DNA of 64,000 nucleotides from a virus (IMGVR_UViG_3300037424_000485:96001-160000), one strand, 5' to 3'. Positions 2,686 to 43,343 are shown, counted from the stretch's first letter. A program made the numbers and translations. Notes: generated from the letters alone by a model not told the origin.

Positions 2686-2772
2686 TTATAAAATAAAAAA
2701 TTCTTCTGGTATTAAATTTTTTGGTGCGCCCCAATCTTGTTTATTTAATATAATAGACGTTGATATATACAT
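2686..2772 (-). CDS. 28-aa ORF ending in the recurrent C-terminal motif (NLIPEEFFIL)
   Basis: Manual translation MYISTSIILNKQDWGAPKNLIPEEFFIL; below the ORF-track length cutoff. Confidence 0.35.
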   Translation of the reverse strand: MYISTSIILNKQDWGAPKNLIPEEFFIL

Positions 2773-2803
2773 AATACAACTATTATAGGATATATGTAAA
2801 GAA

Positions 2804-3139
2804 TTATTTTACAATCTTAATAAACTCTAAATCAAAGTCATCTATAAATCCTGTTTCCCAATCAGGTACACAGTTCACAAACTGCAATTGGTAGATAGCA
2901 CCATCCTCTATGTTGTTAATCATAGGTGCTTTTTGGCTATATACATCTTCTTGTAGGGTTTCATCAAAAGCACCGCATTTATCACATCCTCTACAGGACA
3001 TACGTTTTAAAGGAACCATTGTTTCTTTATAGGTATATGTGCCATTTTCACTCATATAACATGAAACATGTCCTCTATATACTCTACCCTTACAAGGTTG
3101 TATATCCTCCTGTAAGAACCCATGAAGATCTATGTTCAT
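2804..3139 (-). CDS. Hypothetical protein with CxxCxxC
   Basis: CRGCDKC; directly downstream of the helicase. Confidence 0.6.
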   Translation of the reverse strand: MNIDLHGFLQEDIQPCKGRVYRGHVSCYMSENGTYTYKETMVPLKRMSCRGCDKCGAFDETLQEDVYSQKAPMINNIEDGAIYQLQFVNCVPDWETGFIDDFDLEFIKIVK

Positions 3140-3141
3140 AA

Positions 3142-4488
3142 CTATCCTTTATTGTAAATATTTGTACTACCACCACTTCTTTTAGAGTCTTCTATCCATA
3201 AATCCATTTCAGAAACATCATACAATTTTAGAGATCTGTCATCAAGATACAATCTATTGATAATACCACTATGTCCAAATCTACTTTTACATATTTTATA
3301 AGCAACTTCACTTTCATATACCATGGCATCTTCATCAGATCCTAATATAGCTACAAAATCTGCTGTTGCTCCAAGGCCGGAACTTTCAGATATACTATTC
3401 ATATCAACTTCTTCTAGTGTTAGAAAAGATCCTGATCTGTTTAGCTGAGATACAGAAACAACAGGAATATTAAACTCAAAACCTATTGCTCTTAGTTCTT
3501 CTGATATTTTCTTAACATCTCCATACATTGAATCTTTTGAACCATATTCAGGTTTCATTAGATTAACATAGTCACAATATAATATTTCAGGGGCTTTTCC
3601 TCTCATGGCTAACTCTCTTAGCCATATTCTAAAATTAGCCGTTGATGCTGTACCAGTAGGAAATTCTTTAATATATAAATCTCCTCTCCCTTCCTGTTTT
3701 TTTAAAGTTTTTAATGCAGAATATAAATCTCTCTTCATCTGATTATTGGTATACATTCTGTTAATATCCAACATAGAATATATAGAATCGAATCTTTGGG
3801 CAAATGCTTTTTCTGACATCTCAAGAGTGCATATTCCAACGTTATGACCGTGCATAACCTGCCTGGTTATGATGTTGGCCATTATATTCGATTTTCCAGA
3901 ATGTATCTTCCCAATAAAAGCTGAAAATGTATAGGGGGGAAACCCACCATTTAAATATTCATCTAGTTGGGGTAGATATGTTGGAATTCTAATATCGGTA
4001 GCAGAAAATGTGTCTTTAAGGCGTTCAAATAATTTGCCCCAATAATCAAGCCCTAAATTTATTTTAATATCTTTACATAGAGCTGCCTCTACTAAAGACT
4101 TGATTTCATTGACATTACCACCACTATCGATAATATCAGCCGAATCCATAATAGCGCGTTTTATTGCCCTGTCTTTTAGATATATATTAGTATTCTCTAA
4201 TAGCCATGTATAATTACGAGAAGTGTCATAATCTATAGAATCCATTTCAGTAAAAAAATTTTTACAATCCTCACGAACACTTGAAGATACAGATTGTATT
4301 ACTATGTCTCGTTGAGGGACTTCTTTAAATTCTAGAAGGTGTTCACTAATAGATTTAAAAATTTCAGAATGTGTGGCATCTTCAAAGTATTCTGGTATGA
4401 AAACTGTTGTTATAGTTGTTAAATATTGCCTATCTTCTAGTGCAGTTTTGAACATGCATGATATTAAATAATTTGGATCTATTGTCAT
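3142..4488 (-). CDS. gp41: DnaB-family replicative helicase (T4 gp41-like)
   Basis: Walker A GKIHSGKS, TLEMSE, YCDYVNL, SQLNRSG, ISESSGL..TAD, KSRFG motifs. Confidence 0.93.
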   Translation of the reverse strand: MTIDPNYLISCMFKTALEDRQYLTTITTVFIPEYFEDATHSEIFKSISEHLLEFKEVPQRDIVIQSVSSSVREDCKNFFTEMDSIDYDTSRNYTWLLENTNIYLKDRAIKRAIMDSADIIDSGGNVNEIKSLVEAALCKDIKINLGLDYWGKLFERLKDTFSATDIRIPTYLPQLDEYLNGGFPPYTFSAFIGKIHSGKSNIMANIITRQVMHGHNVGICTLEMSEKAFAQRFDSIYSMLDINRMYTNNQMKRDLYSALKTLKKQEGRGDLYIKEFPTGTASTANFRIWLRELAMRGKAPEILYCDYVNLMKPEYGSKDSMYGDVKKISEELRAIGFEFNIPVVSVSQLNRSGSFLTLEEVDMNSISESSGLGATADFVAILGSDEDAMVYESEVAYKICKSRFGHSGIINRLYLDDRSLKLYDVSEMDLWIEDSKRSGGSTNIYNKG

Positions 4489-4530
4489 TAAAACTCCTTA
4501 TGTTTATCTACCAATAATAACATAGGGAAT

Positions 4531-4779
4531 TTATATTGTAAATAACACCTCTGGTACTATATTGCATTTAATTTCTTTTCCTACCCTATGATCATATACA
4601 TCTTTACTTATAAAACCCTCCAAGCTCCCACACTTTTCACAGCGATAGTTATAATTATCGGTATCTATATCACAATCTAACAATAGCCGATGAGTGCATT
4701 TAAAGCATGATATAATAATTTTAGCTCGGTGTATTTCTATCAATATATCAACAACGTCACAACTCCGACTATTTAACAT
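4531..4779 (-). CDS. Small Zn-ribbon protein with C-terminal IVPEVLFTI motif
   Basis: CFKC and CEKC. Confidence 0.55.
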   Translation of the reverse strand: MLNSRSCDVVDILIEIHRAKIIISCFKCTHRLLLDCDIDTDNYNYRCEKCGSLEGFISKDVYDHRVGKEIKCNIVPEVLFTI

Positions 4780-5233
4780 ATATTTCCACTCCCTCTATAA
4801 TTCTCTTAATACCTGATATATATTTTTTCTCTAATCTTATATGAGTTTTTTCATCGAGAAGATCCATTCTTTCTCTAAGCATGTTATGCTCTATATCTGC
4901 TTTCTTGACCCTCATGGCCGATATGTTCCCAGAGTCAACAATTTCATTTATCCATATAAGATATGGTCTATGATCATCTACATCTCTGGTAACAAGTTTA
5001 AGGATATCAATAACCTCTTCTGTATATCCCATATCATGAAGATTATCATAAGTATATGAAGTATCCTCGACAATATCATGTAAAAGTGCTGCATGTTTCT
5101 CTGTATCTGTTGCATCGACACCAAGAAGACTATAAACAGCAAAAGGATGTAGCCAATAAGGTACTCCGACTTTATCAAACACACCAGCATGTGCTTCTTT
5201 TATAAAATCTATCGTTTTTTCTATACTTCTCAT
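4769..5233 (-). CDS. HD-domain hydrolase of the RelA/SpoT (Mesh1-like, small alarmone hydrolase) type
   Basis: AH.G..DK.G.PY..HP..V, ALLHDIVEDT and VKKADIEHN motifs. Confidence 0.8.
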   Translation of the reverse strand: MRSIEKTIDFIKEAHAGVFDKVGVPYWLHPFAVYSLLGVDATDTEKHAALLHDIVEDTSYTYDNLHDMGYTEEVIDILKLVTRDVDDHRPYLIWINEIVDSGNISAMRVKKADIEHNMLRERMDLLDEKTHIRLEKKYISGIKRIIEGVEIYVK

Positions 5234-5457
5234 AATATGAACATATCCTCTGGTATAATATCATAAATAACTACGAATTCTTTATATACCCCATGTCCTT
5301 TTTTATCCCATAAAATACATTTACCATTATTACACATTTCTATTTTATGGACAGTAAATATTCTCCCCGCTCTCCACCCATACCCACATCTATGTCTAGG
5401 GACACCACGCACCTTAACACATATTACTATACTACCAGCTTGTATATTATTTATCAT
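5230..5457 (-). CDS. Small protein with C-terminal IIPEDMFIL motif
   Basis: Overlapping start/stop with neighbours. Confidence 0.5.
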   Translation of the reverse strand: MINNIQAGSIVICVKVRGVPRHRCGYGWRAGRIFTVHKIEMCNNGKCILWDKKGHGVYKEFVVIYDIIPEDMFIL

Positions 5458-5852: not shown

Positions 5853-6131
5853 ATGAACAAATCAGAACTTGTAAAGAAAGTGAGTGATGAGCTGCTTGTT
5901 GATAGCTTAGAGGTGAGGGAAGTAATTGATATAATTTTCGATATGATATCAGATAGTCTTGGTGATGGGGATAATGTCACCATCACTGGCTTTGGATCTT
6001 TCAATCTCGTTCGCAGAGCAGCACGAACAGCACGTAATCCAAAAACAGGAGAAGAGCTTAATGTTCCAGAAAAAACAGTTGTGTCTTTTATTTCTTCAGG
6101 AAAGCTAAAGGGGAGAGTAAATAATGGATAA
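5853..6131 (+). CDS. hup: HU/IHF-family DNA-binding protein
   Basis: MNKSELVKKVS...VTITGFGSF..VRRAARTARNPKTGE signature. Confidence 0.93.
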   Translation: MNKSELVKKVSDELLVDSLEVREVIDIIFDMISDSLGDGDNVTITGFGSFNLVRRAARTARNPKTGEELNVPEKTVVSFISSGKLKGRVNNG

Positions 6132-6738
6132 AGGTAAAAAATGGGAGTTTGCTTACGAACCAACCACTGTTGATGAAATGATACTACATCCTGATGTAAG
6201 GATAAGGCTCATAAAGGCCCTAAAAGAAATTCCAAATATTATGTTGATAGGAAGTCCTGGTATTGGAAAGGGAACATGGGTTAATATTCTACGGAAACAG
6301 ACTGGCTTTAATTGTCGTAAGCTGAATGGATCTGATGAAAGGGGTATAGATGTCTTTAGAGAAAAAATAAAACCATTTTGTTCTGTACCACCCTTAGAAG
6401 GTAGGTATAATATTATGTATTTAAATGAGTGTCTTGAAGAACATGAAAAGGTGAGAATTGGTGATGTTAATAAATGGGAATCTATTGAACTTAGAGATTT
6501 GAAAAATGATACTGAATATCCTATAGTATCCTTTAATATGAAAACAGGTCAATTAGAAAATGATACTTGTACAATAATCACTGATAAGATTGATGATATT
6601 TATGAATTGGAATTAGAAGATGGTCGAAAGATAAAGACAACAAAGAATCATCCTTTTCTTGTGAAAAATAATGATGGTGAAATCGTAGAAAAAGAATTAC
6701 AATATTTGAGTGAAAATGATGAAATAATCACATTGTGA
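6124..6738 (+). CDS. gp44: Clamp loader large subunit N-half (gp44/RFC, aa 1-102) fused to a split-intein N-fragment (102 aa)
   Basis: Walker A GSPGIGKG, LNGSDERGID, Walker B YLNE followed by intein block A CLEEHEKV and block B TTKNHPF; ends ENDEIITL-stop. Confidence 0.88.
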   Translation: MDKGKKWEFAYEPTTVDEMILHPDVRIRLIKALKEIPNIMLIGSPGIGKGTWVNILRKQTGFNCRKLNGSDERGIDVFREKIKPFCSVPPLEGRYNIMYLNECLEEHEKVRIGDVNKWESIELRDLKNDTEYPIVSFNMKTGQLENDTCTIITDKIDDIYELELEDGRKIKTTKNHPFLVKNNDGEIVEKELQYLSENDEIITL

Positions 6739-6804
6739 TTTATAGAATATAATATTTTCACATAAAACACACACTTTACATAAATACTGATAAAGAAATG
6801 TGTT

Positions 6805-7750
6805 ATGAACGAAAGAAAATTAAGAACTCTGAAACGTTACTATAACGAAAGACAGAAACTACTATATAATGAATGGAAAGATGATATATTGATTGATGGT
6901 ATGTATCATTGTCCAGTATGTGATTATACTACTGATAATATAAACGGTTTATGTTGTCATTTAGGTAACAAAGATATAATAAAAATCATATATCATGAGT
7001 ATTTTGGTGACAACACTAAATGTGAAATATGTAATGAAAATACAACATTTTTGAGTCTTTCTAAAGGTCATAGTAGATTTTGTTTGTCGTGTAGTTTAAA
7101 ACGCAATGGTAAAAGATTATCTTCTGATAAGGTTAAACAATTACGTGAATCGGGGTTGTTGAAATATAACACAGATGTTATAAAAAGAAAAAATACAAAT
7201 AAAATAATTGGGGATAAAAATAAAATCAATATGTTGAGATATGTTGAGATATTTTAGAGATAATCCTGAAAAGAAGAAAGAATTATCTGTAAAGGTATCA
7301 AAATCCATGAGGGATAAGATCAAGAATGGTGATTTCACCCCTAATATATCAAACTGCTATAATGGTATTGTTATAAAACATGGTGGTATATCATATAGAA
7401 GTGCATGGGAATTTTCATTTCATCAATTAAATCCACATTTGTTGTATGAAAATATCAGAATACCCTACATATCACCTAAAGATGGTAAATGTAGAAGTTA
7501 TATTGTTGATTTTGTTGATGTTAATAAAAAGATATTGTATGAAGTAAAACCATTTATTAGACAGATGGATGATGTTAATATATCAAAACATAAAAGTGCA
7601 TTGAAGTGGTGTGAAGATAATGACTATATATATGTTTATATATCTGAAATATACTTTCATGATAATCTCAATACGGAGATTATTGAAAATTGGGACAATA
7701 ATATTAAAAAAAGGTTAAAATATTTTGTTAATGAAGACAATAAAAATTAA
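6805..7750 (+). pseudogene. Free-standing homing-endonuclease-like gene (Zn fingers plus PD-(D/E)XK, TnsA-N-like domain) between the split-intein halves, frameshifted by a 10-bp tandem duplication
   Basis: ATGTTGAGAT repeated at 7231-7240 and 7241-7250; removing one copy gives 936 nt = 311 aa; YRSAWE...YE..IPY...Y.VDF...YEVKP motifs; CATAAATA late-promoter-like box at 6779-6786. Confidence 0.75.
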
Positions 7751-8453
7751 AAGAATTACAAATATTGGTACTGGTAGGGTTATTAATCTAAATGTTAAAA
7801 GAAACCACACATTTGTTACTGAGAACGGGATACCAACACATAATTGTGATCATCTAACACCAGATACCCAAGCAGCATTGCGAGATTTCATTGAGACTGT
7901 GCATAATACAACAAGATTTGTTGTATGTGCAAACTATGGTGATAAAATAACACCAGAATTCAAGTCCAGATTTAGAGTGGTTGAGATGCTACCACCACCA
8001 GGAAAAGAGATATTCAAACATCTTGAGTATATCCTTAAATCTGAAGGTATTAGATATAAAAAAGAAACTCTTGTGGATTTGATTAAAAAATGCTACCCTG
8101 ATGTACGTCAAACCATTATATCATTACAGGAGAACGTTATCAATGGCGTACTTCCTGAATATCTTGTCATTACTACAATAAACGATGTATATGATGATAT
8201 TCTCAAAGCTATGCTAACTGGCAATCCAGATAATGTAAGAAAACTATTGCGTAGCCATCATATTGACTATACTGCATTATACAAATACATCTATGATAAA
8301 ATCATGGATAGTGCTGATGATGATTTATTCGCTAATGATGTGGGTGCTATATTGTTGGTTGGTGAGCATTCACATAAGGATAATACAAGCTGTATTAAAG
8401 AAATTAATTTTATGGAAATGTTTTTTAAAATGTTGTCTCAAGGAGTTATTTAA
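7731..8453 (+). CDS. gp44: Split-intein C-fragment (38 aa) plus clamp loader large subunit C-half
   Basis: MKTIKIKRIT...VINLNVKRNHTFVTENGIPTHN then C-extein CDHLTPDTQAALR...TRFVVCANY..KI...KSRF, YPDVRQTI. Confidence 0.88.
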   Translation: MKTIKIKRITNIGTGRVINLNVKRNHTFVTENGIPTHNCDHLTPDTQAALRDFIETVHNTTRFVVCANYGDKITPEFKSRFRVVEMLPPPGKEIFKHLEYILKSEGIRYKKETLVDLIKKCYPDVRQTIISLQENVINGVLPEYLVITTINDVYDDILKAMLTGNPDNVRKLLRSHHIDYTALYKYIYDKIMDSADDDLFANDVGAILLVGEHSHKDNTSCIKEINFMEMFFKMLSQGVI

Positions 8454-8662: not shown

Positions 8663-9238
8663 ATGGATAATTATTATAGATATAAGTCTACATTAGATGA
8701 AAAAAATCTTATTAGTAGTATAGCATATGATATTAAACATGCTTTTAAAGATATGATTCTTAGGGCTATTAAAATTGGTTATATCCATACTGCCCATATG
8801 ACAACCCATGAATATAATTCCCTTATATATTATTTTGAGAAATGTCTAAGAAATGAAATTCAGCACATTATAGGTAGATCTTTCTATAGCCCATTGAGAT
8901 TTTCTATCAATCCTCCTAATCTTGAATATATCCATTCCATATCCATTAGATTAGAGATAGGAAATGATCCTCTTGTAATTGATACTGTATGGGAATATAA
9001 CAATATAGACCATATTCAAAGATATAACCGTGTGGATAGTTCAGACCATATAAATGCATCTGATCTATACAGTATATTATCTAATCCTGAAGCTAGAAGA
9101 ACTAGATATTATACACATCAGCATGTTGGGGTAGATGGTGAGATAAGATATTGTCCTTTTGAGTATAATATCGATAAACAAAAAAAAGAAAAACCTAAAG
9201 AAATCATTCCATCTAATTTATTTAGTATGGATGAATAA
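8663..9238 (+). CDS. Hypothetical protein with C-terminal IIPSNLFSM motif
   Basis: 191-aa ORF in operon. Confidence 0.6.
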   Translation: MDNYYRYKSTLDEKNLISSIAYDIKHAFKDMILRAIKIGYIHTAHMTTHEYNSLIYYFEKCLRNEIQHIIGRSFYSPLRFSINPPNLEYIHSISIRLEIGNDPLVIDTVWEYNNIDHIQRYNRVDSSDHINASDLYSILSNPEARRTRYYTHQHVGVDGEIRYCPFEYNIDKQKKEKPKEIIPSNLFSMDE

Positions 9239-9254
9239 TAGAAAAAGGAATTAG

Positions 9255-9992
9255 ATGTATATATTAACTGATGAAGAAAGAAAAAATCTGAAGGCTATTA
9301 TAGAACCATCAACCTCTATAATGACCAGATTTAGAGATAAAGCCCCCGGCTCTTATAAACATTGCCAAGCTGTATCTGCATTATGTGAAAATGTTGCCCT
9401 TGAGTTGGGTCTTGATGTAGATTTAATGTCTGCTGCTGGTATGCTCCATGATATTGGTAAGATAGTAAATCCAGGATATTTTACTGAGAATCAAGAGAAT
9501 GTCAATCCTCATGATGAATTAGATCCATTTGTATCATATCAGATTATAACAAGGCATATTAGCGATACTGTTTTAATGCTAACTCAAATGACAGATATTA
9601 CTCGTAAAGTTATCGAGATTGTATCAGAGCATCACGGAGATGCAATTTTAATGCCATTTTATCTAAAACAAAAGGAAAAAACTAAGAATGGTATATTAGA
9701 AGATAGGTTTAGATATAAAAGCAGAAAGCCAACAACTACTGAATCATCAGTGTTGATGATTGTCGATTGTATAGAGGCAACTGCCAAATCTATATATAAC
9801 TCTGGTAAGCAGATCAATGTTAAAGAGATGGTCGATTCTGCATTCATACGACTCGAAGATGATGAACAGCTTGACGAATTAAAGATAGGTATTAAAAGAA
9901 TTATCAAGCAAGTGATATACAAGGAAGTTGAGAGTATATACCATAAGAGAGTTTCTTATGAAGAATTAGAAAAGGAATCTCAAAATGTCTGA
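9255..9992 (+). CDS. Stand-alone HD (HDIG) phosphohydrolase resembling the HD domain of PgpH/YqfF 7TM-HD proteins
   Basis: PGSYKHC..VS.L, LHDIGK..NPGYFTENQ..NPHDEL.P, EHHG, RY..RKPTT.ES..LMI.DCIEA motifs; no TM segments. Confidence 0.8.
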   Translation: MYILTDEERKNLKAIIEPSTSIMTRFRDKAPGSYKHCQAVSALCENVALELGLDVDLMSAAGMLHDIGKIVNPGYFTENQENVNPHDELDPFVSYQIITRHISDTVLMLTQMTDITRKVIEIVSEHHGDAILMPFYLKQKEKTKNGILEDRFRYKSRKPTTTESSVLMIVDCIEATAKSIYNSGKQINVKEMVDSAFIRLEDDEQLDELKIGIKRIIKQVIYKEVESIYHKRVSYEELEKESQNV

Positions 9993-10320
9993 TTTATCTG
10001 ACTGTTTAAATGCAGTAAACGAAAAGACAGCATATACCTATAACAAAAAACATTGCAGCGGTTTTATGCTTGCAATGTGGTTATCTCATGATCCAGGGCT
10101 TATTGGTATTTGCAATAAAATAAACCCATATATATTCAATTTACCAGATGAGTTAATATATAAATATTTTAGAAAGAATGTTCCGAGTAAGAAGAGATAT
10201 TTAAAATGGACTAAAAAAATTGGTATTGGTATAGAAAAAGATTCAGAAATACAAGAGTTTATGGATAAATATGATGTATCTTCGAGAGAGGCCATGTTGT
10301 CTATAAGACGATTAAAGTAG
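9985..10320 (+). CDS. gp62: Clamp loader small subunit (gp62-like)
   Basis: L.AVNEK..Y, FML..WLS, Y.YF...V..KKRYLKW.KK, REA pattern; position between gp44 and gp45. Confidence 0.75.
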   Translation: MSDLSDCLNAVNEKTAYTYNKKHCSGFMLAMWLSHDPGLIGICNKINPYIFNLPDELIYKYFRKNVPSKKRYLKWTKKIGIGIEKDSEIQEFMDKYDVSSREAMLSIRRLK

Positions 10321-10322: not shown

Positions 10323-11177
10323 TTAATTGCATTTATTTCTTCTCATATCACAGCCTTTTTGCTTGTGTATTATATTGTGACATGCTTTGCATAATGTAAT
10401 ACAGTTATCAATATCAGCACTTTCAATAGGATTTATTTCTATCCCTTCAAAGTGGTGACAGTGTAATTGGGCATTGATATCACTACATTTTTGACACATC
10501 CAAATGTCTCTTTCTAATACTAATTTTCTTAATTGTGGTTGTACTTCTCTAGACGTGTTAGTTTTAAACCCTTTAGGATATACTTTTTGACCATATGTTC
10601 CACAAGATTTTTTGCAATTGTCAGAGCAATAAAGACTATTATCACTTGTATAATTTCCATTTATTGATAATATTCTACTAGATATGGACATATTAGTAGG
10701 CTTAAAATACTTACCACAATATTTGCATCTTACCTCAAGTGCTACGCCATCATCAGCCAATCTTGGCTCTTCTTCCATTGTTAGCTGATGAGCATATGTT
10801 TCGTATAATGCATGATATTTGTGATATTGTTTACACTTATTCTTTATATAATCAATATTATCAGTACGATATTGTTTACTTTTTTTCTTTATATAATCAA
10901 TATTATCGGTACGATATTGTTTCTTATATAAAGAAATGTCTTTTTTGTTGTCAATATAATATTGTTTTTGATATAACGAAACGTCTTTTTTGTTGTCAAT
11001 ATAATATTGTCTTGACTTCTCTATAATATCTTCTCTATTGTTAATATAGTGCTGTTTTCTACATTGTTTACAATTAAAGTTATGACCATCTTTTGCTGAT
11101 TTAGATATACCAAATTCATCAATAGATTTTATTTCATTACATTTAGTGCATTTTTTGGTATAAATATGGATAGACAT
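10323..11177 (-). CDS. HNH homing endonuclease, antisense insertion between gp62 and gp45; paralog of 26164..26895
   Basis: KKCTKCNE..SIDEF; KQYY.DN repeats; RDIWMCQKC...LHCHH...DNCITLCKACHN. Confidence 0.85.
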   Translation of the reverse strand: MSIHIYTKKCTKCNEIKSIDEFGISKSAKDGHNFNCKQCRKQHYINNREDIIEKSRQYYIDNKKDVSLYQKQYYIDNKKDISLYKKQYRTDNIDYIKKKSKQYRTDNIDYIKNKCKQYHKYHALYETYAHQLTMEEEPRLADDGVALEVRCKYCGKYFKPTNMSISSRILSINGNYTSDNSLYCSDNCKKSCGTYGQKVYPKGFKTNTSREVQPQLRKLVLERDIWMCQKCSDINAQLHCHHFEGIEINPIESADIDNCITLCKACHNIIHKQKGCDMRRNKCN

Positions 11178-11332: not shown

Positions 11333-12076
11333 TTGAACGTAAATATTGATAGCTTTAAAAATTTGTTGTTAAAGGGAACTCTTAATTATTCCTCATCGAA
11401 TATTGGCTTTACTGTAGATAAAGAAAGGATAAGAGTTGGTATGCGTGGAGATAATTATGTGGTTATCTTAAAAATGAATAATGATTTAATCCCAGATGTA
11501 AAAGGAGAAGCATCATTTTATTTTGACGAACCAAGTAACCAAATACGAACCCATTTAGATTTATTATCTGACTGTGAGAATGTAGAGATTGGTATTAAAG
11601 ACAATCATATTATTTTAAATGCGGATGGGCAAAAAAGTGTTATTCATTTCTGTTCTCCAAATTTAGTACCAACTTTTAGCGGTTCAGGCCCAAAAACAGA
11701 TGGCGTACATGTGTATGATGTAAAGATAAGTCATGAGTGGATGTATAATCTAGATAAAATTCAAAAAATAGCTAGTAAATTTAAGAAGATATATTTTGTT
11801 GTTAAGAATGGTAAAATATATATTGAAGCAACTGATAAAACAAACAGCTACTCTAATGGTCTGACATTCGAGCTAGGATCTACTGACCTATCAGATACAA
11901 TTATGTGTTTCGATTTTAAACCATTTTCCAATGCATTTAAGGTATTGGGGGATAGATATGAGGAATTCACCATGTCTGTTAATTATATAGAAAAACTGAA
12001 TGCAGGTATTATATCCTTTATTAATGAAGACGGAAGTGAAAAATATTTCATTTTAAGCAAAGATGATATAGATTAA
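11333..12076 (+). CDS. gp45: Sliding clamp (gp45-like); probable TTG start at 11333
   Basis: AGGAG RBS 7 nt before TTG; about 247 aa with clamp-like beta-rich pattern; follows gp44 and gp62 in T4 order. Confidence 0.7.
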   Translation: MNVNIDSFKNLLLKGTLNYSSSNIGFTVDKERIRVGMRGDNYVVILKMNNDLIPDVKGEASFYFDEPSNQIRTHLDLLSDCENVEIGIKDNHIILNADGQKSVIHFCSPNLVPTFSGSGPKTDGVHVYDVKISHEWMYNLDKIQKIASKFKKIYFVVKNGKIYIEATDKTNSYSNGLTFELGSTDLSDTIMCFDFKPFSNAFKVLGDRYEEFTMSVNYIEKLNAGIISFINEDGSEKYFILSKDDID

Positions 12077-12247: not shown

Positions 12248-12343
12248 GTCTATTAAATAGTAGAGGGATTAATATAGTCCCTAATTAAAGGTGTGTTAGA
12301 ATAATCTAACATGTTAATCAAAATTGTAAAAAGGAGATTTAAA

Positions 12344-12595
12344 ATGGCTTGGAACACTGAAACTACCCATGTTGCAAATGTAACCACTATTACCGTAAAT
12401 GGCTCTCGTCAGTCACTTGATTCATCAGTGGGCGAATCTTTCGGTTCGACTGTTGTAGAAGCAGCAGTCGCCGCAAATATGGGCAAATTCCGCGTATTTC
12501 TTAATGGAGCGGAGATTGATCAGGCAGATGCACCCACCACTATTACAGCTGGCATGGCTATTGAGCTGAAGCCCTACGATGTAGCAGGGATGTAA
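12344..12595 (+). CDS. Ubiquitin-like (beta-grasp, ThiS/MoaD/SAMP-type) protein, 83 aa, ending PYDVAG-M
   Basis: AAGGAG RBS; TITVNG...FRVFLNG.EI...ITAGMAIELKPYDVAG strand pattern; penultimate Gly; E2/E1/JAB genes downstream. Confidence 0.75.
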   Translation: MAWNTETTHVANVTTITVNGSRQSLDSSVGESFGSTVVEAAVAANMGKFRVFLNGAEIDQADAPTTITAGMAIELKPYDVAGM

Positions 12596-12629
12596 TGTCG
12601 TAAAATCAATGACTTATGTTGTTGAACAT

Positions 12630-12856
12630 GAGGACATCCGATATACCATTTTTAGCAAGTTATAATACCAGAGATTTGTACAATCTCGTCCCATGAAAGG
12701 ATACTTTCAGGTTATCATATCTCCCTTGTTAGGTGTATCAAAAATGTCATTTTATTAGCTGTTGACTCTGTGCTGGTTGTCCTATCAATGTACAGATAGA
12801 TTAAGAGGGTAGAAGTAGGACTGATGACCCTTTTGTTAATTTAAAATGATGTCCTC
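12630..12856 (+). ncRNA. Candidate structured RNA between the Ubl stop and a terminator
   Basis: Closing stem GAGGACATC/GATGTCCTC; internal helices GATATACC/GGTGTATC, GAGATT/AATCTC, CTATC/GATAG, AGGGT/ACCCT; no ORF over 30 aa found. Confidence 0.35.
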
Positions 12857-12860
12857 TTTT

Positions 12861-12900
12861 AAGGGATATAGACCAAACGGTTTATATCCCTTATTTTTTT
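12861..12900 (+). terminator. Rho-independent terminator
   Basis: AAGGGATATAGACC-aaac-GGTTTATATCCCTT followed by a T-tract. Confidence 0.8.
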
Positions 12901-13018
12901 GCCTTTTACAATAATAACTCTTGACAGATAATAATTTTTCTTATATATTAGGGGAAATGATTGTATTTTATTAATTATTAAAACTAAGGAAAAAATATGT
13001 GGACAACAGCAAGTAATA

Positions 13019-13414
13019 ATGGGAAAATCTCAAAAAAACATATGCCCTGAGTGTCATTGTGAGATTGGGGCTTTTCCTCTAACTTTTAAGGATGGAAGTC
13101 TGGGATGTGAAGAGTGTGTATTAGAGGATAATAAAAAGATAAAGTTTTCATGGTATCTAGACAATTATCCCTCTCTTGATATTGATGACTGCGAACGTCT
13201 TGATGAATATGGTGATATTACAAAACTAAAAAATAAATGGGTCACTATTATTTTTGGGGATTTTTTAAGTGCCTTGTGGTGTGCTGGATTTGATAATAAA
13301 CAAGATGTTGAAGATTTTCTTAAAGATTCCATCGAAGAAATCAATTCGGATTCAGATATAATCGTGTACCATTTTGGTAAGGTAGTTAATTGGAAATTTT
13401 CTATCGAAGATTGA
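13019..13414 (+). CDS. Zn-ribbon protein within the Ubl locus
   Basis: CPEC and CEEC; TTGACA promoter-like box upstream. Confidence 0.55.
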   Translation: MGKSQKNICPECHCEIGAFPLTFKDGSLGCEECVLEDNKKIKFSWYLDNYPSLDIDDCERLDEYGDITKLKNKWVTIIFGDFLSALWCAGFDNKQDVEDFLKDSIEEINSDSDIIVYHFGKVVNWKFSIED

Positions 13415-13498
13415 AATAATCCTTGACTTTTAATAGTTATGGGATTAAGATAGCCCAGATAGTATAAACAAATATTAATTCTAACTAAGGAAAATAAA

Positions 13499-14380
13499 AT
13501 GGTATCGTCAAAAACAGATGTTGAAAAACTACAAAAAGAGGTGTCTCTAGGAGTAGATGAAATCATCTCTGGTATCGATCTCACAGATATTCGTGCCTCT
13601 GGTATTATCATCACCGTAGGTGGAAAGCGCGTAAGGCTTGAGGTTGCTGAAGAGCAGATAGTTGAAGAAGATGCAATTCGTAAAGAACTGACTGAAAAAT
13701 TCAATGAGAAGCTTCAGTCAATTCGTAGCTTCGTTAATGAGAAGGCTATGAGTATTGAAAATGTACTCTCCACATATCGTAATGATTACGAAAAGAAAGA
13801 AAAAGCTCTTGATATTCGTCTTTCAGAGGCTAATATCATGCCAGACATTACACGCTCTCACTCATACAAGGGACTTTCTGTTGTTAAGGGTGGAGGGCCT
13901 ACTTATGCTGGTAGGGCTGATGTGTTTACATGGATCTATCGCACCACATATAAACCCACTAGGTGGAATGGCATTCCTCTAAATCAAAATTTTGCAAAGA
14001 AGATGATTACACCTATCATTATTGAACTTACAACTGAGAGAGATAAAATTCTTGCAATTCGTGTCAAAACATATATTGGAGATAGGGATTTTAGTCACTA
14101 TCACAACAATTGTTGGGGTGAATGGAAATATAGTGCAGAGATAGTAAAGACACCTGATGATATCCTACGTGTTTGTGAAACAGCATCTGCTGTACTTGAT
14201 AATATCAATGGAAGGTCTTTAGCTCAGAGTGCTCCGAATGGTTTGCCTAGAGCATCTACCGTTGAAAAAAATGTTATCAAAACAAATCCAGGGGCATCAA
14301 CTGTTGTATCGAGTAATAGAGCAGATGAAAGGGCCGGTCTTGATATGACTGTAGAACCTGATTCTGGATGGACAACTTGA
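13499..14380 (+). CDS. Prokaryotic E2-like (UBC-fold) conjugating enzyme with N-terminal coiled coil
   Basis: FSHYHNNCWG resembles the HPH..CWG/CLG catalytic segment of Prok-E2 families; downstream VLDNINGRS resembles the L..PN..S element; context next to ThiF and JAB. Confidence 0.65.
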   Translation: MVSSKTDVEKLQKEVSLGVDEIISGIDLTDIRASGIIITVGGKRVRLEVAEEQIVEEDAIRKELTEKFNEKLQSIRSFVNEKAMSIENVLSTYRNDYEKKEKALDIRLSEANIMPDITRSHSYKGLSVVKGGGPTYAGRADVFTWIYRTTYKPTRWNGIPLNQNFAKKMITPIIIELTTERDKILAIRVKTYIGDRDFSHYHNNCWGEWKYSAEIVKTPDDILRVCETASAVLDNINGRSLAQSAPNGLPRASTVEKNVIKTNPGASTVVSSNRADERAGLDMTVEPDSGWTT

Positions 14381-14555
14381 TTAAAACATAAGGGGTCGAA
14401 ATATACCCCTTATAGTAAGGTATGGATATCTTGTCTAATAATAATAATATTTCTGAAAATAGTTGAGTTCTTTTATTCATTAAAAACTTCTTGACTATAC
14501 CTAAAAATATGGTATATTGTCTTTATAGATTAAATATTAACAAAGAGAGGGATAT

Positions 14556-15167
14556 ATGTCACTAGGTGGAACGCTTTATAATCGTCAAGAAACATTAGGT
14601 CTAAATGTTGATCAATCCGTGGTTTGTATCGGCGCGGGTGGAATTGGATTCCATGTAACCAAAATGCTTGCAATGTCTGGTATTAAAAATCTGTTTGTGT
14701 TTGATACAGACATTTTTGAAGAGCATAATCTTAATCGTATCGACTGTCCTACTGATTGTATTGGTATGAACAAAGCTGATGCTATCAAGATGTTCGTTGA
14801 GCAGATGCGTCCAGATTGCTATATTAAAGCATTCCCATATCAATTCTCTCCATCTTTTGTTAATATGGCAGAAATTGATTGGATTGTTGACTGTACCGAT
14901 GTTTTTGAAGCACAATTGAAACATCAGGGATTTGCAGATCAATACAAAGTAAAGTACCAGAAAGCTGGATATGATGGAGAATCAATGTCCATCAATAGCA
15001 GAGTTGGCACATGGGATACAGGTAATACTCCTGATGGTTATCAAATAACCCCCTCATGGGTTGTTCCTACTATTATTATTGCGGCTTTGGCTGTTGGGAA
15101 AGTTCTGAAATATACAACTGGTGAGATGGGTTGTAATTTAAAAGACTTTTATACATTATCAGATTAA
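14556..15167 (+). CDS. ThiF/MoeB/E1-family adenylating enzyme
   Basis: GAGGIG, D.D.FEEHNLNR, IGMNKA, WIVDCTD motifs. Confidence 0.92.
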   Translation: MSLGGTLYNRQETLGLNVDQSVVCIGAGGIGFHVTKMLAMSGIKNLFVFDTDIFEEHNLNRIDCPTDCIGMNKADAIKMFVEQMRPDCYIKAFPYQFSPSFVNMAEIDWIVDCTDVFEAQLKHQGFADQYKVKYQKAGYDGESMSINSRVGTWDTGNTPDGYQITPSWVVPTIIIAALAVGKVLKYTTGEMGCNLKDFYTLSD

Positions 15168-15185
15168 TACAATAGAGGAATAACC

Positions 15186-15650
15186 ATGGTTAATATTACA
15201 TGCAAGAAAATACAGACATATGTAATCAGTGCTGATGAGATTTACAATCTCATCTTAGATAAATATGATGCTGTTGATGGTAAATTTGGACAATTGTTCC
15301 TATATAAAGAGACTGTATCTACAGTTATTGATAAACAAGATTTATTTGAATTTTCTATTGTTCTTAATGATAATGAAAAGGCGTTTAAATTACCACCATA
15401 TAACACTGGTGGTGAATGTATATCAGTAAATAAGGCGTGGGAAGTTCCAGCAACTCCTTTATCTCTGAACGAACCATGGACAGTTACACCTATTAAACAT
15501 GTACATCCTGAAAGTAAACCATTTATTGGTGACTCATGGACAACAGAAAAACCCAGCGATCTCCCCATTATAGACGATATTTATTCTGTTGTGGATAATG
15601 ATCTTCCTATCGTGGATGATGATTTTGAAGAGGCCGGTGGTTCACAATAA
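15186..15650 (+). CDS. Hypothetical protein between E1 and JAB (PWT repeats, acidic tail)
   Basis: RBS GAGG; operonic position. Confidence 0.6.
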   Translation: MVNITCKKIQTYVISADEIYNLILDKYDAVDGKFGQLFLYKETVSTVIDKQDLFEFSIVLNDNEKAFKLPPYNTGGECISVNKAWEVPATPLSLNEPWTVTPIKHVHPESKPFIGDSWTTEKPSDLPIIDDIYSVVDNDLPIVDDDFEEAGGSQ

Positions 15651-15676
15651 GTTATACAATAATATCAATACTATAG

Positions 15677-21046: not shown

Positions 21047-21957
21047 TTAAAAGAAAATATCAAAGCATTTGCTTTGTGTTAGTATTTTTTCACGATTCTG
21101 AGGCTCTAATAAAAATTTTACCTTACCTACGAAAAACTTCTCAATCTGTTTTCCATAATCCAACTGTAGCCCATTTTCAGTGAATTCTTTAGGCCAATCA
21201 TAATAACTAACCACTGTAATCCCAAAGCGATTTCTTTTAAGATATACTACCTTGGCTTTATCCCCTTCTTTTATTCTTTCATATTTGTTCTGAATGTTAA
21301 ATTCTTTTAATAGCATATGATAATTACAAGCACCCTTGACATGATAAGGGGTTCCTTTTATGGCACAGTCATTCTTAATATACTTGCTCATATTATTAAT
21401 ACCTATATTAGCACTCAATTCTTCTGCTGGTGATGCTTCCATACTAATCTTATACTCATCTACATGTTTTCGTATATCATCGTCAGAATGTCCTTTAAGG
21501 ATCATTCCTAGCAGATGTTTTAATGCTTTGCGAAATATTGATGGGCATTCAGACCTAATAATAACAAGACCTTTTACATCTATCTTATCGCATGGCTTTC
21601 CATCATCATCAACTACATTATAACCATACATTTTCTTTTTAATAAAAAGTGCAGTACGACACACAATTTCTTGTTTAAATCCAATAGAAAAATCATCTCT
21701 TTCAACTATAGAGTTATACGTACCTATCTGAGTATTTTCAAACGCCTCATCTTCTACATTTTTTTCTACGATTTTTGATATTCTTTTAACAAAATCAATT
21801 TTATGAACATCGGGTATTTTATCCCAATGCTGTTTTGTAATTCCTTGATCTAAAAGAAAAGCCTCCACCATTATAAATAAACTATCAGTATCGATCTTCT
21901 CTAAATATAGGCGATATAATCAATCATATCGCCTATATTTCTATTCCTTTTTATCAT
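21047..21957 (-). CDS. gp43: Family B DNA polymerase C-terminal subunit (gp43B); motif C interrupted by an 11-nt gap
   Basis: MIKRNRNIGDMIDYIAYI-TAG-AGAAG-ATC then DTDSLFI...KQE...KKKMY...VKGLVIIRS; removing 11 nt gives DYIAYIDTDSLFI and 900 nt in frame. Confidence 0.85.
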
Positions 21958-22887: not shown

Positions 22888-22911
22888 AAATAGTAGTTAA
22901 TCGTTGCCGCT

Positions 22912-23005: not shown

Positions 23006-23043
23006 CCTATGTGTTCGTCAGATGTAAAGTAGTACATAATATC

Positions 23044-23304
23044 CTACATAGTGAAAAGTTCAGGTGGAGCTATATCATACAGTGATAATGTGTCTTCTCT
23101 ATACCACCACCCTGTAGTGTCATATGGCGATCTATAGACCTCTCTTAGTATATTATTATCTGTTTGTACTAGATAGCCTCTATCCCTCCTAATACTCTTA
23201 ACCACACCAACTTTACCATTGGCATGTGCTATCATATAATCATTCCAATTAGATACATCCCCTAAATTATTTATAGCTACCCTATCACCAACTTTAAATT
23301 TCAT
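23044..23304 (-). CDS. Small SH3/KOW-like protein with C-terminal IAPPELFTM motif
   Basis: MKFKVGDRV...GKVGVV. Confidence 0.55.
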   Translation of the reverse strand: MKFKVGDRVAINNLGDVSNWNDYMIAHANGKVGVVKSIRRDRGYLVQTDNNILREVYRSPYDTTGWWYREDTLSLYDIAPPELFTM

Positions 23305-23627
23305 ACCATCTCCATATCGAAAAGATTTTCTGGAACTATATTAATAAGTAGTATCTCAAGACCTTTCTCATGTATAACAATATCATGTCCATCTTCAAGA
23401 GACACACCAACAATTTCTTGATATGTGTCATTGGTGTGATATGTGTCATCGGAGTGTGATCTAACATCAACAACAATACCTACCTCTCCATTAGATCCAC
23501 GATATCCAATTTTATAATTATGAAGACCCATCATCTCAGCCATGATTTTACATCCAGTGAATATCATCCATCTATTAATAATCTTGACTTTACATCCAGG
23601 TAGTAACTCTATACCATTAATCTTCAT
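23301..23627 (-). CDS. Hypothetical protein with C-terminal IVPENLFDM motif
   Basis: Overlapping operon. Confidence 0.55.
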   Translation of the reverse strand: MKINGIELLPGCKVKIINRWMIFTGCKIMAEMMGLHNYKIGYRGSNGEVGIVVDVRSHSDDTYHTNDTYQEIVGVSLEDGHDIVIHEKGLEILLINIVPENLFDMEMV

Positions 23628-23943
23628 ATAATAAATCCCGTACTGATTTTATAATATTTCCATCTTGGTTATAATAATTATAATACTCATAATCATCATA
23701 TAAATGCAAGAGAGCTGGACACCTAGCAGACTCACCAAACATCTGTACTATCTGCTCAATTCCCTCTGGTGTATGTCTTACTGTACGATGTTTATACCCA
23801 AGTTTGACATATAGTGCATCCAACCATTGATGTACCTCAGTATAAGGTTTACCAAAAAACTCTATACATCTAGCTTCATGCTCTTCTCTCCACATTATAG
23901 ATAAGGCCCAAATAAGAAAATCATTAAACAGATATGGATACAT
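23617..23943 (-). CDS. His-rich hypothetical protein
   Basis: H...C...FG....VH.WLD, HR..RH..EG, H..DD pattern; the true start is probably internal. Confidence 0.55.
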   Translation of the reverse strand: MYPYLFNDFLIWALSIMWREEHEARCIEFFGKPYTEVHQWLDALYVKLGYKHRTVRHTPEGIEQIVQMFGESARCPALLHLYDDYEYYNYYNQDGNIIKSVRDLLYED

Positions 23944-28752: not shown

Positions 28753-28867
28753 TTATAACATCTCCTTGTAAAGGGATAGTATAACATTATACATAATAGA
28801 TGTAAATTATCATATCTTAAATAAATCTGATGGTAATATACCTTTTTTACCTAGACTTATAAATCCC

Positions 28868-29107
28868 TTATTTTCTGATCAGTATCAGACCAATAATTTT
28901 ACTATATAGATCTATAATTTCTCTCTGATTTTTGATAATTCTCTCATCCATCTCTGTATTTTGATCTGATATATGATGTGACCATATAATATACAATGCA
29001 AATATACAAAGAAATGAAGCACTATCACCTTTAAGGGCATATGAAACACCTAATAAAAACAGTATGAGGCATGTAATAATATATACCAACCTAATAAAAT
29101 TTTTCAT
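28868..29107 (-). CDS. Small membrane protein
   Basis: Two hydrophobic segments. Confidence 0.5.
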   Translation of the reverse strand: MKNFIRLVYIITCLILFLLGVSYALKGDSASFLCIFALYIIWSHHISDQNTEMDERIIKNQREIIDLYSKIIGLILIRK

Positions 29108-30451: not shown

Positions 30452-30733
30452 TTACATCTTAAATAAGTTCTCAGGCAGTATTGAAAAACAAAGATCTTTT
30501 CTTCCTTCAACACCATAATTTGCTTCAGCATGGTGTAGTCTATCCCATCCACAATATCCCTCCTCATAGGTATAATACAATGCAGCTGGTTGAAAATTCT
30601 GTATAGTATCCCATAATAATGAACATTCACGTCTATTTGTGGTATTTTCTATAAAAAACCTTTTAATTTCATTAAAACCATCTTCACTATAAACGGTTGT
30701 ATAGTTTTTCATGGTATATGTCTTTGCTAACAT
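30452..30733 (-). CDS. Hypothetical protein with C-terminal ILPENLFKM motif
   Basis: Co-oriented ORF. Confidence 0.55.
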   Translation of the reverse strand: MLAKTYTMKNYTTVYSEDGFNEIKRFFIENTTNRRECSLLWDTIQNFQPAALYYTYEEGYCGWDRLHHAEANYGVEGRKDLCFSILPENLFKM

Positions 30734-32451: not shown

Positions 32452-32802
32452 TTACATCCTAAATAAACTATCTGGTATTGTGGATACATATTCAAGTTCA
32501 GTATTATAATACAACCACCCATGGAATCCAACCAATTCCTCATGTAGTAGTGGATCTCCAATATACACACGACAATACATATCACTAAGTGCTGACCCGA
32601 TGGCTGTTACAGTTCCTATTTTACCAATAGCGTGATTCTCCATATGAACATTCCAATAAGAGCTATGAAAGCCATGATCGGCATGAGGAACATGAGAAAC
32701 TATCCTAACTTTATCACCAGTTTTAAAACGTCCCATATAGTATCTCCAATTTACTTTTTTAGGCTGATCCTTTCGGTATAAACATGACTTATTATACACC
32801 AT
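32452..32802 (-). CDS. SH3-like small protein with C-terminal IPDSLFRM motif; the true start is probably MGRFKTGDKV
   Basis: FKTGDKVRI...GKIGTV, like 23044..23304. Confidence 0.55.
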   Translation of the reverse strand: MVYNKSCLYRKDQPKKVNWRYYMGRFKTGDKVRIVSHVPHADHGFHSSYWNVHMENHAIGKIGTVTAIGSALSDMYCRVYIGDPLLHEELVGFHGWLYYNTELEYVSTIPDSLFRM

Positions 32803-39409: not shown

Positions 39410-39748
39410 TTACCAGTAGAACCAACCAGCATCTTTAATCCATTTATCAAATGAATAACCATCATAATCCATATGACGTAAGACACGTGAAGTCTCTACT
39501 TTATCTTTTGCACGTCTTTCACGATTTAACATCCGTGTATAGGACTTTGGCGCATGGCCATCCCATCCATAACCACTTTTAGTTTCTCTATGGTACTTTG
39601 AAACAGTGTATTTATCATCTCTAATTGAACAATTTCTTGAACAATGAATACCAAAACACCGATCATTAACACATTGCTCTATGCGATAACAATATGTTTC
39701 TAAAATTTGGTCGTTAGTGACCTTTTTTCTTCTGTATGTTCTTGACAT
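39410..39748 (-). CDS. Basic hypothetical protein
   Basis: MSRTYRR start; AGGAG RBS. Confidence 0.6.
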   Translation of the reverse strand: MSRTYRRKKVTNDQILETYCYRIEQCVNDRCFGIHCSRNCSIRDDKYTVSKYHRETKSGYGWDGHAPKSYTRMLNRERRAKDKVETSRVLRHMDYDGYSFDKWIKDAGWFYW

Positions 39749-39839
39749 TTTGAATCTCCTATATATGTATAATTACATATTCGAGTATCAAAATTATTAT
39801 AAATTGTTTTCATTATATTTTTCCTTACATTTTAAAAAT

Positions 39840-41008: not shown

Positions 41009-41014
41009 TAATTC

Positions 41015-41754: not shown

Positions 41755-41792
41755 TAAGATGCCCATTCTAATCGTCATCAAAATGGGCATCT
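41755..41792. terminator. Hairpin/terminator
   Basis: AAGATGCCCATT...AATGGGCATCTT. Confidence 0.55.
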
Positions 41793-42191
41793 TTTGTGTA
41801 TAATCCAGGATACAAAAATCTATTGTTTTATATCCAACACCATGCCTTGATGCACCGTCCTCTAACGCTGTGAGGTATTATGCGGTATCATCACTTTTAT
41901 GTCTAGAAGCCTTCTATATCGTGTGATCATCACTCACACATGGGGAATACCCATAATTTTGGCGACCACCTAGTTTCCCGATATGAATATAGTTTCTATG
42001 ACATTTTTACTACTAGTATAGTACATTATTTGTTTATTCTCTTATTATATTATATTATATAATAAGTAGTCAGAGGTGTCTAGACATAATCTACTCCTTA
42101 TTGGTTGAATATGGATTTAGGGTTTCTTCTCAACATCTTCTGCAACTCTATAATTACATCTTACTCTATTTGATTTAGGATGTCAACTTTT

Positions 42192-42614
42192 TTATAGTTT
42201 AGATCCGCAAATCTTACAAAAACCTTTTCCATTATCCGCAATCGGTCTTTTGCACTTGACACAGTTAGTCTTAATCACTCGTTCTGGTGTCTTTTTTACC
42301 TTCTCAACAACTACAGGCTCGACTACAGGCTCAACTACAGGCTCGACTACAGGCTCAACTACAGGCTCGACTACAGGCTCAACTACAGGCTCGACTACAG
42401 GCTCGACTACAGGCTCAACTACAGGCTCAACTACAGGCTCAACTACAGGCTCGATATATTTCTTCTTAGAAGATTTCTTTTTCTTCTTAGAAGATTTATC
42501 AACATCCATTTCTTCTACTCTACCAACAACAATATCCATTTCTTCAATATCAACTGTTGTGTTATTCTCAAGGCCGAGATTATTCTCATCCTCTTCTTTT
42601 TTATACCATGTCAT
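42192..42614 (-). CDS. Protein with (EPVV)n repeat and C-terminal Zn ribbon
   Basis: GGAGG RBS; CVKC..CKIC; late-promoter-like TATAAATA upstream. Confidence 0.6.
   Translation of the reverse strand: MTWYKKEEDENNLGLENNTTVDIEEMDIVVGRVEEMDVDKSSKKKKKSSKKKYIEPVVEPVVEPVVEPVVEPVVEPVVEPVVEPVVEPVVEPVVEPVVEPVVVEKVKKTPERVIKTNCVKCKRPIADNGKGFCKICGSKL
42310..42453. repeat. 12-bp tandem repeat x12 (ACTACAGGCTC[A/G])
   Basis: Direct reading; encodes EPVV on the minus strand. Confidence 0.9.
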
Positions 42615-42768
42615 AATTTTTTCCTCCTATAGATAAAATACTACTATTATTTATAAGAGAGTGAAAATTATTATATCAACTTTTCTTTAAATCTTTCATG
42701 ATCCCAATGTCTATATATCTACATAATCAAGAAAAAGAACTTCAATAACAATCACCTTTATTTTTAAC

Positions 42769-42844
42769 TGGAAGCCGGGGAGGGGATAGAACCCTCAACA
42801 CTCAGGTTCAAAACCTGATGCTCTACCAATTGAACTACCCGGCT
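42769..42844 (-). tRNA. tRNA-Gln(UUG)
   Basis: AGCCGGG/CCCGGCT, TCAGG-TTTTGAA-CCTGA, CCA. Confidence 0.85.
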
Positions 42845-43028
42845 ATTTTTTATACTTCTCCACTAAACTATCAGCATGGTCTAAAGAAGCATATTCACCA
42901 CAAAGACATATACCAACTGAGTGATCACATCCTTCACCAGATCCCTCATGGTATAATTTTATAATTTCCATAAGATCTTCAATACACTCCACAAGCTCAT
43001 GCTGTATTTTATTCTTATTCATATTCAT
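42843..43028 (-). CDS. Small hypothetical protein
   Basis: GAGGTG RBS; CDHSVGICLC. Confidence 0.5.
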   Translation of the reverse strand: MNMNKNKIQHELVECIEDLMEIIKLYHEGSGEGCDHSVGICLCGEYASLDHADSLVEKYKK

Positions 43029-43039
43029 AACACCTCACA

Positions 43040-43343
43040 TTACATTTTAAATAAGTCTTCCGGCACTATGGATATGCCCATATAAGCCATAACTTCTGAT
43101 ATATTATTTACTATATGGTATTTAATATCATATTCAATCATGCCATCCAACACCCTACACCCTACCATAATATCTACAATATATTAATTTTTTATCCAAA
43201 CTTAATATCAGATAAGGTGAATCTGAGGTATGTGATATATTAGTATCCTCGAACCGCCATCTAAAACCAATCTTAAACAATTCTTTTTGAATATATACAG
43301 ACTGCATTTCACAGTGTATAGGTATAGCTAAATTATTTATCAT
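43040..43343 (-). pseudogene. Small gene frameshifted by a 7-bp tandem duplication; the restored product ends IVPEDLFKM
   Basis: CACCCTA x2 at 43151-43164; removing one copy gives 297 nt in frame. Confidence 0.6.

Follow-up and report, generated by a model that had tools for sequence, protein, structure and literature searches.

A genome-specific C-terminal tail on many small proteins of an uncultured T4-like phage may be a modular docking peptide

Why should some twenty small proteins of one phage, several of them dissimilar in every other respect, end in the same few residues? The question is raised by a 64,000-nucleotide stretch of viral DNA (IMGVR_UViG_3300037424_000485:96001-160000, here the window), which comprises bases 96,001-160,000 of a whole virus contig of 204,431 bp and 32% G+C (G000). 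Homologs of T4 replication genes mark G000 as a distant T4 relative, an uncultured sediment phage whose gp41 is only ~30% identical to that of the closest cultured phages. The original prediction listed nine genes between window positions 2,686 and 43,343 with a shared C-terminal motif and proposed a common docking tag. All nine open reading frames (ORFs) do end in [ILVA]P..[LMF]Fx[MIL], and we consider the tail to be a modular, genome-specific docking peptide for one co-evolving partner, with a probability of roughly 0.55. A published description of this tail was not found.

The recurrence of the tail is not a product of chance. Among 350 greedily called ORFs of G000 (63,352 residues), a strict eight-residue form of the motif lies no more than three residues from the C-terminus in 18 (~1 in 20), including eight of the 129 ORFs in the window, versus 0.023 genes expected from composition-matched draws, which excludes chance. 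Internal matches to the strict motif number one in all 63,352 residues. Six-frame translation of the window yields 21 matches to a looser pattern, [IVLA]P..[LMF]F, and in 10 of them a stop follows after exactly two more residues, as it does in 16 of the 68 matches in the genome; a degenerate DNA pattern for the tail gives 12 matches versus 0 with the reversed control.

Conservation was predicted to be at the protein level, and codon usage agrees: codons vary freely, with all Leu and Pro codons in use. Where two G000 tails have the same residue, they share its codon 0.595 of the time versus 0.487 expected from genome codon usage, and in four other genomes the same-codon fraction is 0.51–0.60 versus 0.40–0.46 expected. 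Synonymous codons are thus almost as free as genome usage allows, which argues that selection acts on the peptide and not on the DNA. At the first Leu of the tail in one relative (G012), TTA, TTG, CTA, CTC, CTG, and CTT are all used. The ortholog of a 191-residue G000 carrier, encoded in a contig with a 70% identical clamp (L068), ends NEIIPSELFRMDD (IIPSELFRMDD), and the tail is kept through three substitutions. All 18 carriers have an acidic residue at motif positions 3–4 and hydrophobic residues at positions 1, 5, 6, and 8. Thirteen end F-x-[MIL]-COOH, and five have one to three extra residues (G, E, EK, DE, or EMV); in three of these (EK, DE, and EMV) the extra codons give the ribosome site or start of the next gene. 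Because extra residues are tolerated, a strictly free carboxylate at a fixed distance is not needed.

The bodies that carry the tail had been described as mostly unrelated, which is true in part. Zn-ribbon-like and mutually dissimilar bodies exist, but of the 18 G000 carriers eight are members of a single divergent SH3/KOW-like family, whose proteins start K-x-G-D-x-V. Four of the eight are in the window, all on the minus strand: proteins of 75 residues (5230..5457, ending DIIPEDMFIL), 86 residues (23044..23304, DIAPPELFTM), 108 residues (23301..23627, NIVPENLFDMEMV, that is VPENLFDMEMV), and 116 residues (32452..32802, STIPDSLFRM; SH3_15 match E 0.0016, below cut-off). In the 108-residue protein, the three residues after the tail (within GAT ATG GAG ATG GTA TGA) overlap the next gene's ribosome site and start. 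AlphaFold2, given a 30-row alignment, predicts the 5230-5457 protein as a confident barrel of six strands (mean pLDDT 83), from which the tail hangs off as a one-turn helix (residues 70–73, pLDDT ~66). Family alignment and model agree with the five- to six-stranded barrel and N-terminal K-x-G-D-x-V strand that define an SH3/KOW-like protein in this analysis; Foldseek returns weak rows only (SH3, KOW, Tudor, and eS4, all with E of at least 0.1), and a family hidden Markov model (HMM) built without the tail scores the protein at E 3e-12. A profile search of 1.8 billion representatives adds ~30 metagenomic clusters (50% identity) of this small SH3-like family, nearly all with the same tail type. 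Searched by tblastn, 50,697 GenBank phages contained no match to the one tagged protein used as query.

Outside this family, the same tail is found on Zn-ribbon or Cys-rich families, on a protein with two domains resembling the L7/L12 C-terminal domain, and on others. On the minus strand of the window, an 82-residue Cys-rich, Zn-ribbon-like protein (4531..4779; matches to Zn_ribbon_8 and DUF6510 are weak and below cut-off) ends NIVPEVLFTI, and a 93-residue protein with no family matches (30452..30733) ends SILPENLFKM. On the plus strand, the 191-residue protein (8663..9238), encoded in the clamp-loader operon, has a Lys/Glu-rich linker and then the tail (KQKKEKPKEIIPSNLFSMDE, ending IIPSNLFSMDE). 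The L7/L12-like carrier belongs to a relative, G001 (L014:17462-17926, 154 residues), and two stretches of it match the ribosomal L7/L12 C-terminal domain (PF00542, E 1.7e-9).

Some tagged genes are broken or vestigial. Directly downstream of gp32, a minus-strand gene of ~98 residues ending SIVPEDLFKM (43040..43343) is cut into 43155-43343 and 43040-43168 by the 7-bp duplication that had been proposed, two tandem copies of GTAGGGT at 43152-43165 (minus strand). The very short minus-strand ORF at 2686..2805 ends NLIPEEFFIL after 28 residues counted from the ATG at 2772, or 39 codons from the first start; it is without a clear Shine-Dalgarno sequence and is either a doubtful gene or the remnant of a tagged one. 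A tail-only remnant, GILPSDLFKI (28810..28878, minus strand), forms a 22-codon frame followed by two stops upstream of the N-terminal part of gp43. Two more lie in tiny frames before the window start, at G000 39733-39793 (..EELFRMD-stop) and ~58862 (..IPSELFGMEI-stop); the former adjoins an HNH gene, a hint that disruption of tagged genes is frequent.

The carriers are all small (34–191 residues, plus the 28–39-codon ORF at 2686) and are encoded between 33 kb and 140 kb of G000, amid genes for replication, recombination, and nucleotide metabolism. No T4-type late promoter (TATAAATA) is present directly upstream of the tagged genes, and from their position we infer early or middle expression. 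No RNA dataset containing window positions 22900-23700 is listed, and the stretch is present in two sediment DNA runs. Contigs of sequencing run X2 are identical over the tagged genes and offer no polymorphism to use.

Comparison with related contigs reveals that in this T4-like clade the tail forms a family, each genome using throughout a version that differs from those of the others. In G000, where 18 genes carry the tail, the consensus is [IVL]P[ED][ED][LM]Fx[ML]. In the 156 kb G001, whose gp41 is 48% identical, about 18–20 small proteins, mostly from two Cys-rich paralog families plus others, end [IL]P[KE][ED]xF[KE]I (for example, IPKEEFKI). Eight proteins of the 162 kb G010 end LP[ED][ED][LW]FEI (for example, LPEELFEI), 21 of 131 ORFs in the 51 kb G012 end LPEELFTI or [FL]DEELFTI, and a few in G011 and G013 (98 kb and 22 kb) have the same tail type. 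Five of ~15 ORFs on a 6.5 kb ENA contig (L026) end [LV]PQHLFDFD. The HMM of the tailless SH3 body finds members in six tag-bearing contigs, each with its own genome's tail version, and no members in tagless relatives. In the 127 kb G003 the P...F tail is absent; five small proteins near gp59/gp32 and the primase, of which two are Cys-rich paralogs and three are mutually unrelated, end in EIEKILDI-type tails (8954-9292, 9308-9670, 10005-10247, 26918-27109, and 27106-27306, in L044-L050). The DNA pattern also matches in three further loci (L017, L018, and L020), but there in small uncalled frames of structural regions, probably by chance.

These observations are consistent with a docking tag, and to that extent the original proposal fits, as one tail occurs on different bodies; its sliding-clamp and ubiquitin-like (Ubl) readings are unsupported. 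The tail would be a short acidic-hydrophobic C-terminal element in which Pro caps a one-turn helix and hydrophobic side chains stand at positions -8, -4, -3 (Phe), and -1, at the free end or no more than three residues from it. Appended to about 18–21 small proteins of several folds, encoded among replication and recombination genes, it would plug every carrier into one hydrophobic groove of a single partner, so that the carriers are recruited to, or compete for, one hub. All carriers in a genome share one version of the tail, and even homologous bodies bear another version in a related genome, so a partner that is phage-encoded and co-evolves with the tail is the most likely one; differing hosts could account for the pattern too.

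Several points weigh against the docking peptide. First, docking is a proposal, and the carriers are predicted proteins. Second, the eight SH3/KOW-like carriers of G000 and most G001 carriers fall into few paralogous families, so part of the recurrence is inheritance and not independent acquisition. Third, in the SH3-like family the tail follows directly after the last strand with no linker, and could belong to the domain's own fold. Fourth, the apparent in-step change of tail and genome rests on about six lineages from a handful of genomes, all incomplete. If the tail is nevertheless a docking tag, the gp45 clamp, bound at a site or in a mode other than that of gp43 and gp55, is an unlikely but credible partner, a protein that reads the gp32 C-terminal tip, for example gp59, a helicase, the polymerase, or gp32's own core, is a fainter candidate, and a component of the Ubl system is very improbable; the rest of the probability falls to another phage or host protein.

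The alternative that survives best, itself unlikely, sees in the tail a T4-type sliding-clamp-binding motif, with which all carriers would ride gp45 via the same hydrophobic patch as gp43, gp55, and gp33. In the T4 family the acidic-hydrophobic C-termini of these three proteins dock on gp45 (PMC2988020, PMC7892883). The window encodes a gp45-like clamp (11333..12076, plus strand; TTG start after AAGGAG, phrog_223 E 3.6e-9, synteny gp44-gp62-gp45), for which 40 homologs were found. The tail too is C-terminal and acidic-hydrophobic with an LF core, and the 191-residue carrier, with its flexible Lys/Glu linker, is both located in the clamp-loader operon and conserved there. The end of the tag, D-[LM]-F-x-hydrophobic, recalls the RB69 gp43 tail, and the ..HLFDFD version on L026 is a closer likeness still; the T4 tails for comparison are SLDFLFG and SLDFLY..

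However, the clamp clients of G000 itself look different. The C-terminal part of gp43 DNA polymerase (21047..21871, minus strand) ends ..SKCFDIFF and the gp55 late sigma factor (61165..61602, minus strand) ends ..KSIDYTLMR, both clamp-binding motifs of the T4 type, hydrophobic-D-hydrophobic, without Pro and with other spacing. The same contrast is seen in G001 (gp43 ..LSLFFK) and G010 (gp43 ..IDSIFG, gp55 ..GIDYTVL). The gp55 motif IDYT, kept in relatives, does not change among G000, G010, G011, and G006 even as the tag does; G003 has another type of gp55 tail. In T4, the various clients have clamp-binding tails that are "highly similar" and interchangeable (PMC2988020), a similarity that the tag fails to show to the gp43 and gp55 tails of its own phage, so its proposed place in the clamp-motif family is not borne out. 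The tag could still use another gp45 site or mode. Complex prediction with the gp45 trimer (40-row alignment) and the 5230-5457 protein (30-row alignment) gave scores of 0.02 and 0.09, with the mark at 0.32, which is no evidence either way. A gp33 homolog was not identified.

As a system, T4 clamp tails (those of gp43, gp55, gp33, and ligase) remain instructive. They belong to the same virus family and are short acidic-hydrophobic C-terminal peptides on several proteins, read by one hub, with linkers of varying length, and interchangeable between carriers (PMC2988020, PMC7892883). Unlike them, the tag has ~20 carriers, mostly tiny proteins, in place of three to five replication and transcription enzymes, and from one related genome to the next its consensus varies, which the gp55 motif does not. 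PIP boxes and the bacterial QL[SD]LF motif are likewise short clamp-client peptides, often C-terminal, that end in a hydrophobic-aromatic pair (LF). The tag has LF or MF, but lacks the initial Gln and has acids where Leu is expected, its first two positions being Pro plus acid or acid plus acid in 18 of 18 carriers; moreover, the phage has its own clamp. Elsewhere in the clade, a 76-residue protein encoded downstream of gp46 (L067:990-1220, minus strand) ends ..DTGLFDWLFG, close to T4 SLDFLFG, in a 20.7-kb locus where no tag is seen. It has no homolog among the tagged proteins, so no argument for swapping of tail types follows from it.

A second alternative, which we regard as doubtful, is that the tail mimics the C-terminal tip of the gp32 single-strand DNA-binding protein (SSB) and fits the pockets into which replication and recombination proteins take that tip, or is read by the gp32 core; carriers would then be recruited to gp32-coated DNA or compete with gp32. 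In G000, gp32 (43448..44428, minus strand) has the acidic tip ..DDDDILDELDKMLG. Of 120 clade homologs (P0192-P0311), 119 end hydrophobic-hydrophobic-x-x-L-x-x-hydrophobic, commonly as D-x-[DE]-L-L-x-E-L-x-x-[LMI], and the tag has the hydrophobic positions -8, -4, and -1 of this tip together with its acid at -5. A position-specific scoring matrix (PSSM) of the tip ranks tagged above other G000 C-termini with an area under the curve of 0.83, compared with 0.63 +/- 0.11 for permuted columns, 2.5% of which reach 0.83. The gp32 tips end DKM(LG) in G000 and DKI in G001, where tags end FKM and FKI, and tagged genes adjoin gp32/gp59 in G000 and G003. Yet in absolute terms the tags score below zero on the PSSM (median -12), and gp32 tips lack the two residues that the tag conserves best, Pro at -7 and Phe at -3. 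The gp32 proteins nearest to that of G000 (73–83% identity) end DSL, NDL, ENL, or DNL, so the K-M match is unstable, and the support amounts to one nominal p of ~0.025 from one test. The gp32 link is a weak lead. The ending of G000 gp32, ..ILDELDKMLG, is itself unusual, the clade tip being otherwise strongly conserved as D-x-[DE]-L-L-x-E-L-x-x-[LMI]-COOH.

More broadly, SSB tips (T4 gp32, E. coli SSB ..DDDIPF, and T7 gp2.5/gp4) combine an acidic run with terminal hydrophobic residues and have many readers, and the clade gp32 tip shares the -8/-4/-1 hydrophobic register of the tag. They differ from the tag in that one carrier there serves many readers whereas here there are many carriers; in addition, gp32 tips have no counterpart of the Pro and Phe. 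None of the carriers is an SSB; they are small, and in most of them no acidic run precedes the tail.

A third alternative is that the tail is a C-terminal degron, by which a host or phage protease or adaptor would remove a class of early proteins together later in infection. Shared C-terminal degrons are established in bacteria (ssrA-type tags), and the tail is near-terminal, has a non-polar end, and is present on many small proteins of the early region. This view is improbable given that the five extended tails tolerate one to three extra residues and that the tail shifts sharply between related phages, which a host protease signal, being conserved, would hardly do; the proteins scanned include no candidate for a protease or an adaptor.

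Known readers of other C-terminal or shared peptides fit imperfectly. The F-x-[MIL] at the free end of 13 of the 18 carriers resembles Class II PDZ ligands (hydrophobic-x-hydrophobic-COOH), which the extended ends of the other five do not. Bacterial PDZ proteins are mostly extracytoplasmic, and no PDZ-type candidate emerged, although no systematic search was made. A MoxR/vWA reader was rejected, as G000 has no AAA_5 or MoxR-type ATPase (PF07728). Before the window, a 231-residue protein encoded downstream of gp46 (G000 52980-53675) bears by eye a vWA-type metal-site signature, D-R-S-G-S ... T-D-G-G; its homologs occur both in G011, where a few P...F tags are present, and in G003, where that tail is missing. 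Comparison of gene content across tag-bearing contigs gave no convincing reader, the candidates including G000 45296-45745 (phrog_1017) and window 1717-2460. Roughly 45 proteins are common to G000, G001, and G010. The T4 capsid-targeting sequence likewise marks many unrelated proteins of a T4-like phage with a single short tag, but it is N-terminal and cleaved by the prohead protease, whereas the tail is C-terminal in every case and found on early-region proteins.

It is highly improbable that the tail has no shared partner at all and is a structural element of a few paralogous families, a result of gene conversion, or a DNA or RNA signal at gene ends. Many carriers are indeed paralogous, and post-tail extensions encode the ribosome site of the next gene. 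Against this, the tail occurs on bodies without detectable similarity, its pLDDT of ~66 falls below the model mean of 83, and codons differ so freely that neither gene conversion nor a nucleotide signal accounts for it.

The least probable reading, a very improbable one, makes the tail a handle that couples variable adaptors to the phage Ubl conjugation system, in the manner of viral F-box/PRANC adaptors or SIM/LIR motifs. Bodies that vary behind a constant tail suit this view, and G000, G001, and G010 each have both tags and a Ubl cluster, in which genes for Ubl (ending ..YDVAG; window 12311-12595), a ~290-residue protein, a ThiF-type E1, and JAB always lie directly downstream of gp45 in the clade (window 12311-17140, G001 98.3-103 kb, G010 148.5-151.2 kb, and L067, L069, L070, and L071). 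But the cluster stands beside gp45 in every clade member seen, including the last four loci, where no tag occurs in ~70 kb of flanks, and in a 209-kb NCBI relative with the cluster another 19 kb surrounding gp32 are free of tags as well, so that its tagless early region amounts to ~40 kb. The cluster is therefore present also in relatives without a tag in the regions seen, and the Ubl system does not require tags. The conserved clamp-Ubl synteny in its own right recalls PCNA ubiquitylation.

Further T4 homologs were mapped in the window. Homologs of gp41 and gp62 lie at 3142-4488 and 9985-10320, and a gp59-like gene at 46268-46888. The gp44 homolog is split in two (6124-6738 and 7725-8453), and the insert (within 6124-8453) holds an endonuclease-like gene at 7241-7750 (phrog_15427). 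The N-terminal part of gp43 (26896-28752, minus strand) is likewise separate from the C-terminal part; the ~5 kb between the two ORFs contain the HNH gene 26164-26895 as well as several small genes, two of which are tagged. In relatives gp43 is unsplit (905 residues in G001, 887 in G010). More than 20 paralogous homing-endonuclease-like genes with a common Cys-rich C-terminus (..HKQDGCNMRRxKC) are scattered genome-wide, several of them within or adjoining essential genes; examples are window 10323-11177 and 26164-26895, and G000 30736, 32763, 39794, and 53905. Past the window end, in the late head-gene region of G000, two larger proteins end ..LIPDNFF (165657-166448, 263 residues) and ..IPVDNFFA (172284-173024, 246 residues). 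The G010 homolog of the latter ends ..SPDNFFL; this C-terminal motif of the head-gene region is a separate one and conserved.

Shared C-terminal tails that dock on one hub are already known from T4 and T7. What is new in this clade is the number of carriers, a code peculiar to each genome, and a tail unlike the clamp tail that the polymerase itself has. If one partner reads the tail, ~20 proteins in each genome, and hundreds in the clade as a whole, would form one functional class, and that reader would be distinct from the polymerase's site. A bolder extension, to which we give only a small probability, is an address code in which a genome-specific C-terminal helix makes 5–15% of genes interchangeable clients of one hub, in its boldest form a Ubl-modified clamp serving as a PCNA-style toolbelt; tag and reader would then diverge together, insulating co-infecting relatives from each other. 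If the docking peptide itself is real, these phages would use eukaryote-style short linear motifs proteome-wide, with reader and motif diverging in step between lineages.

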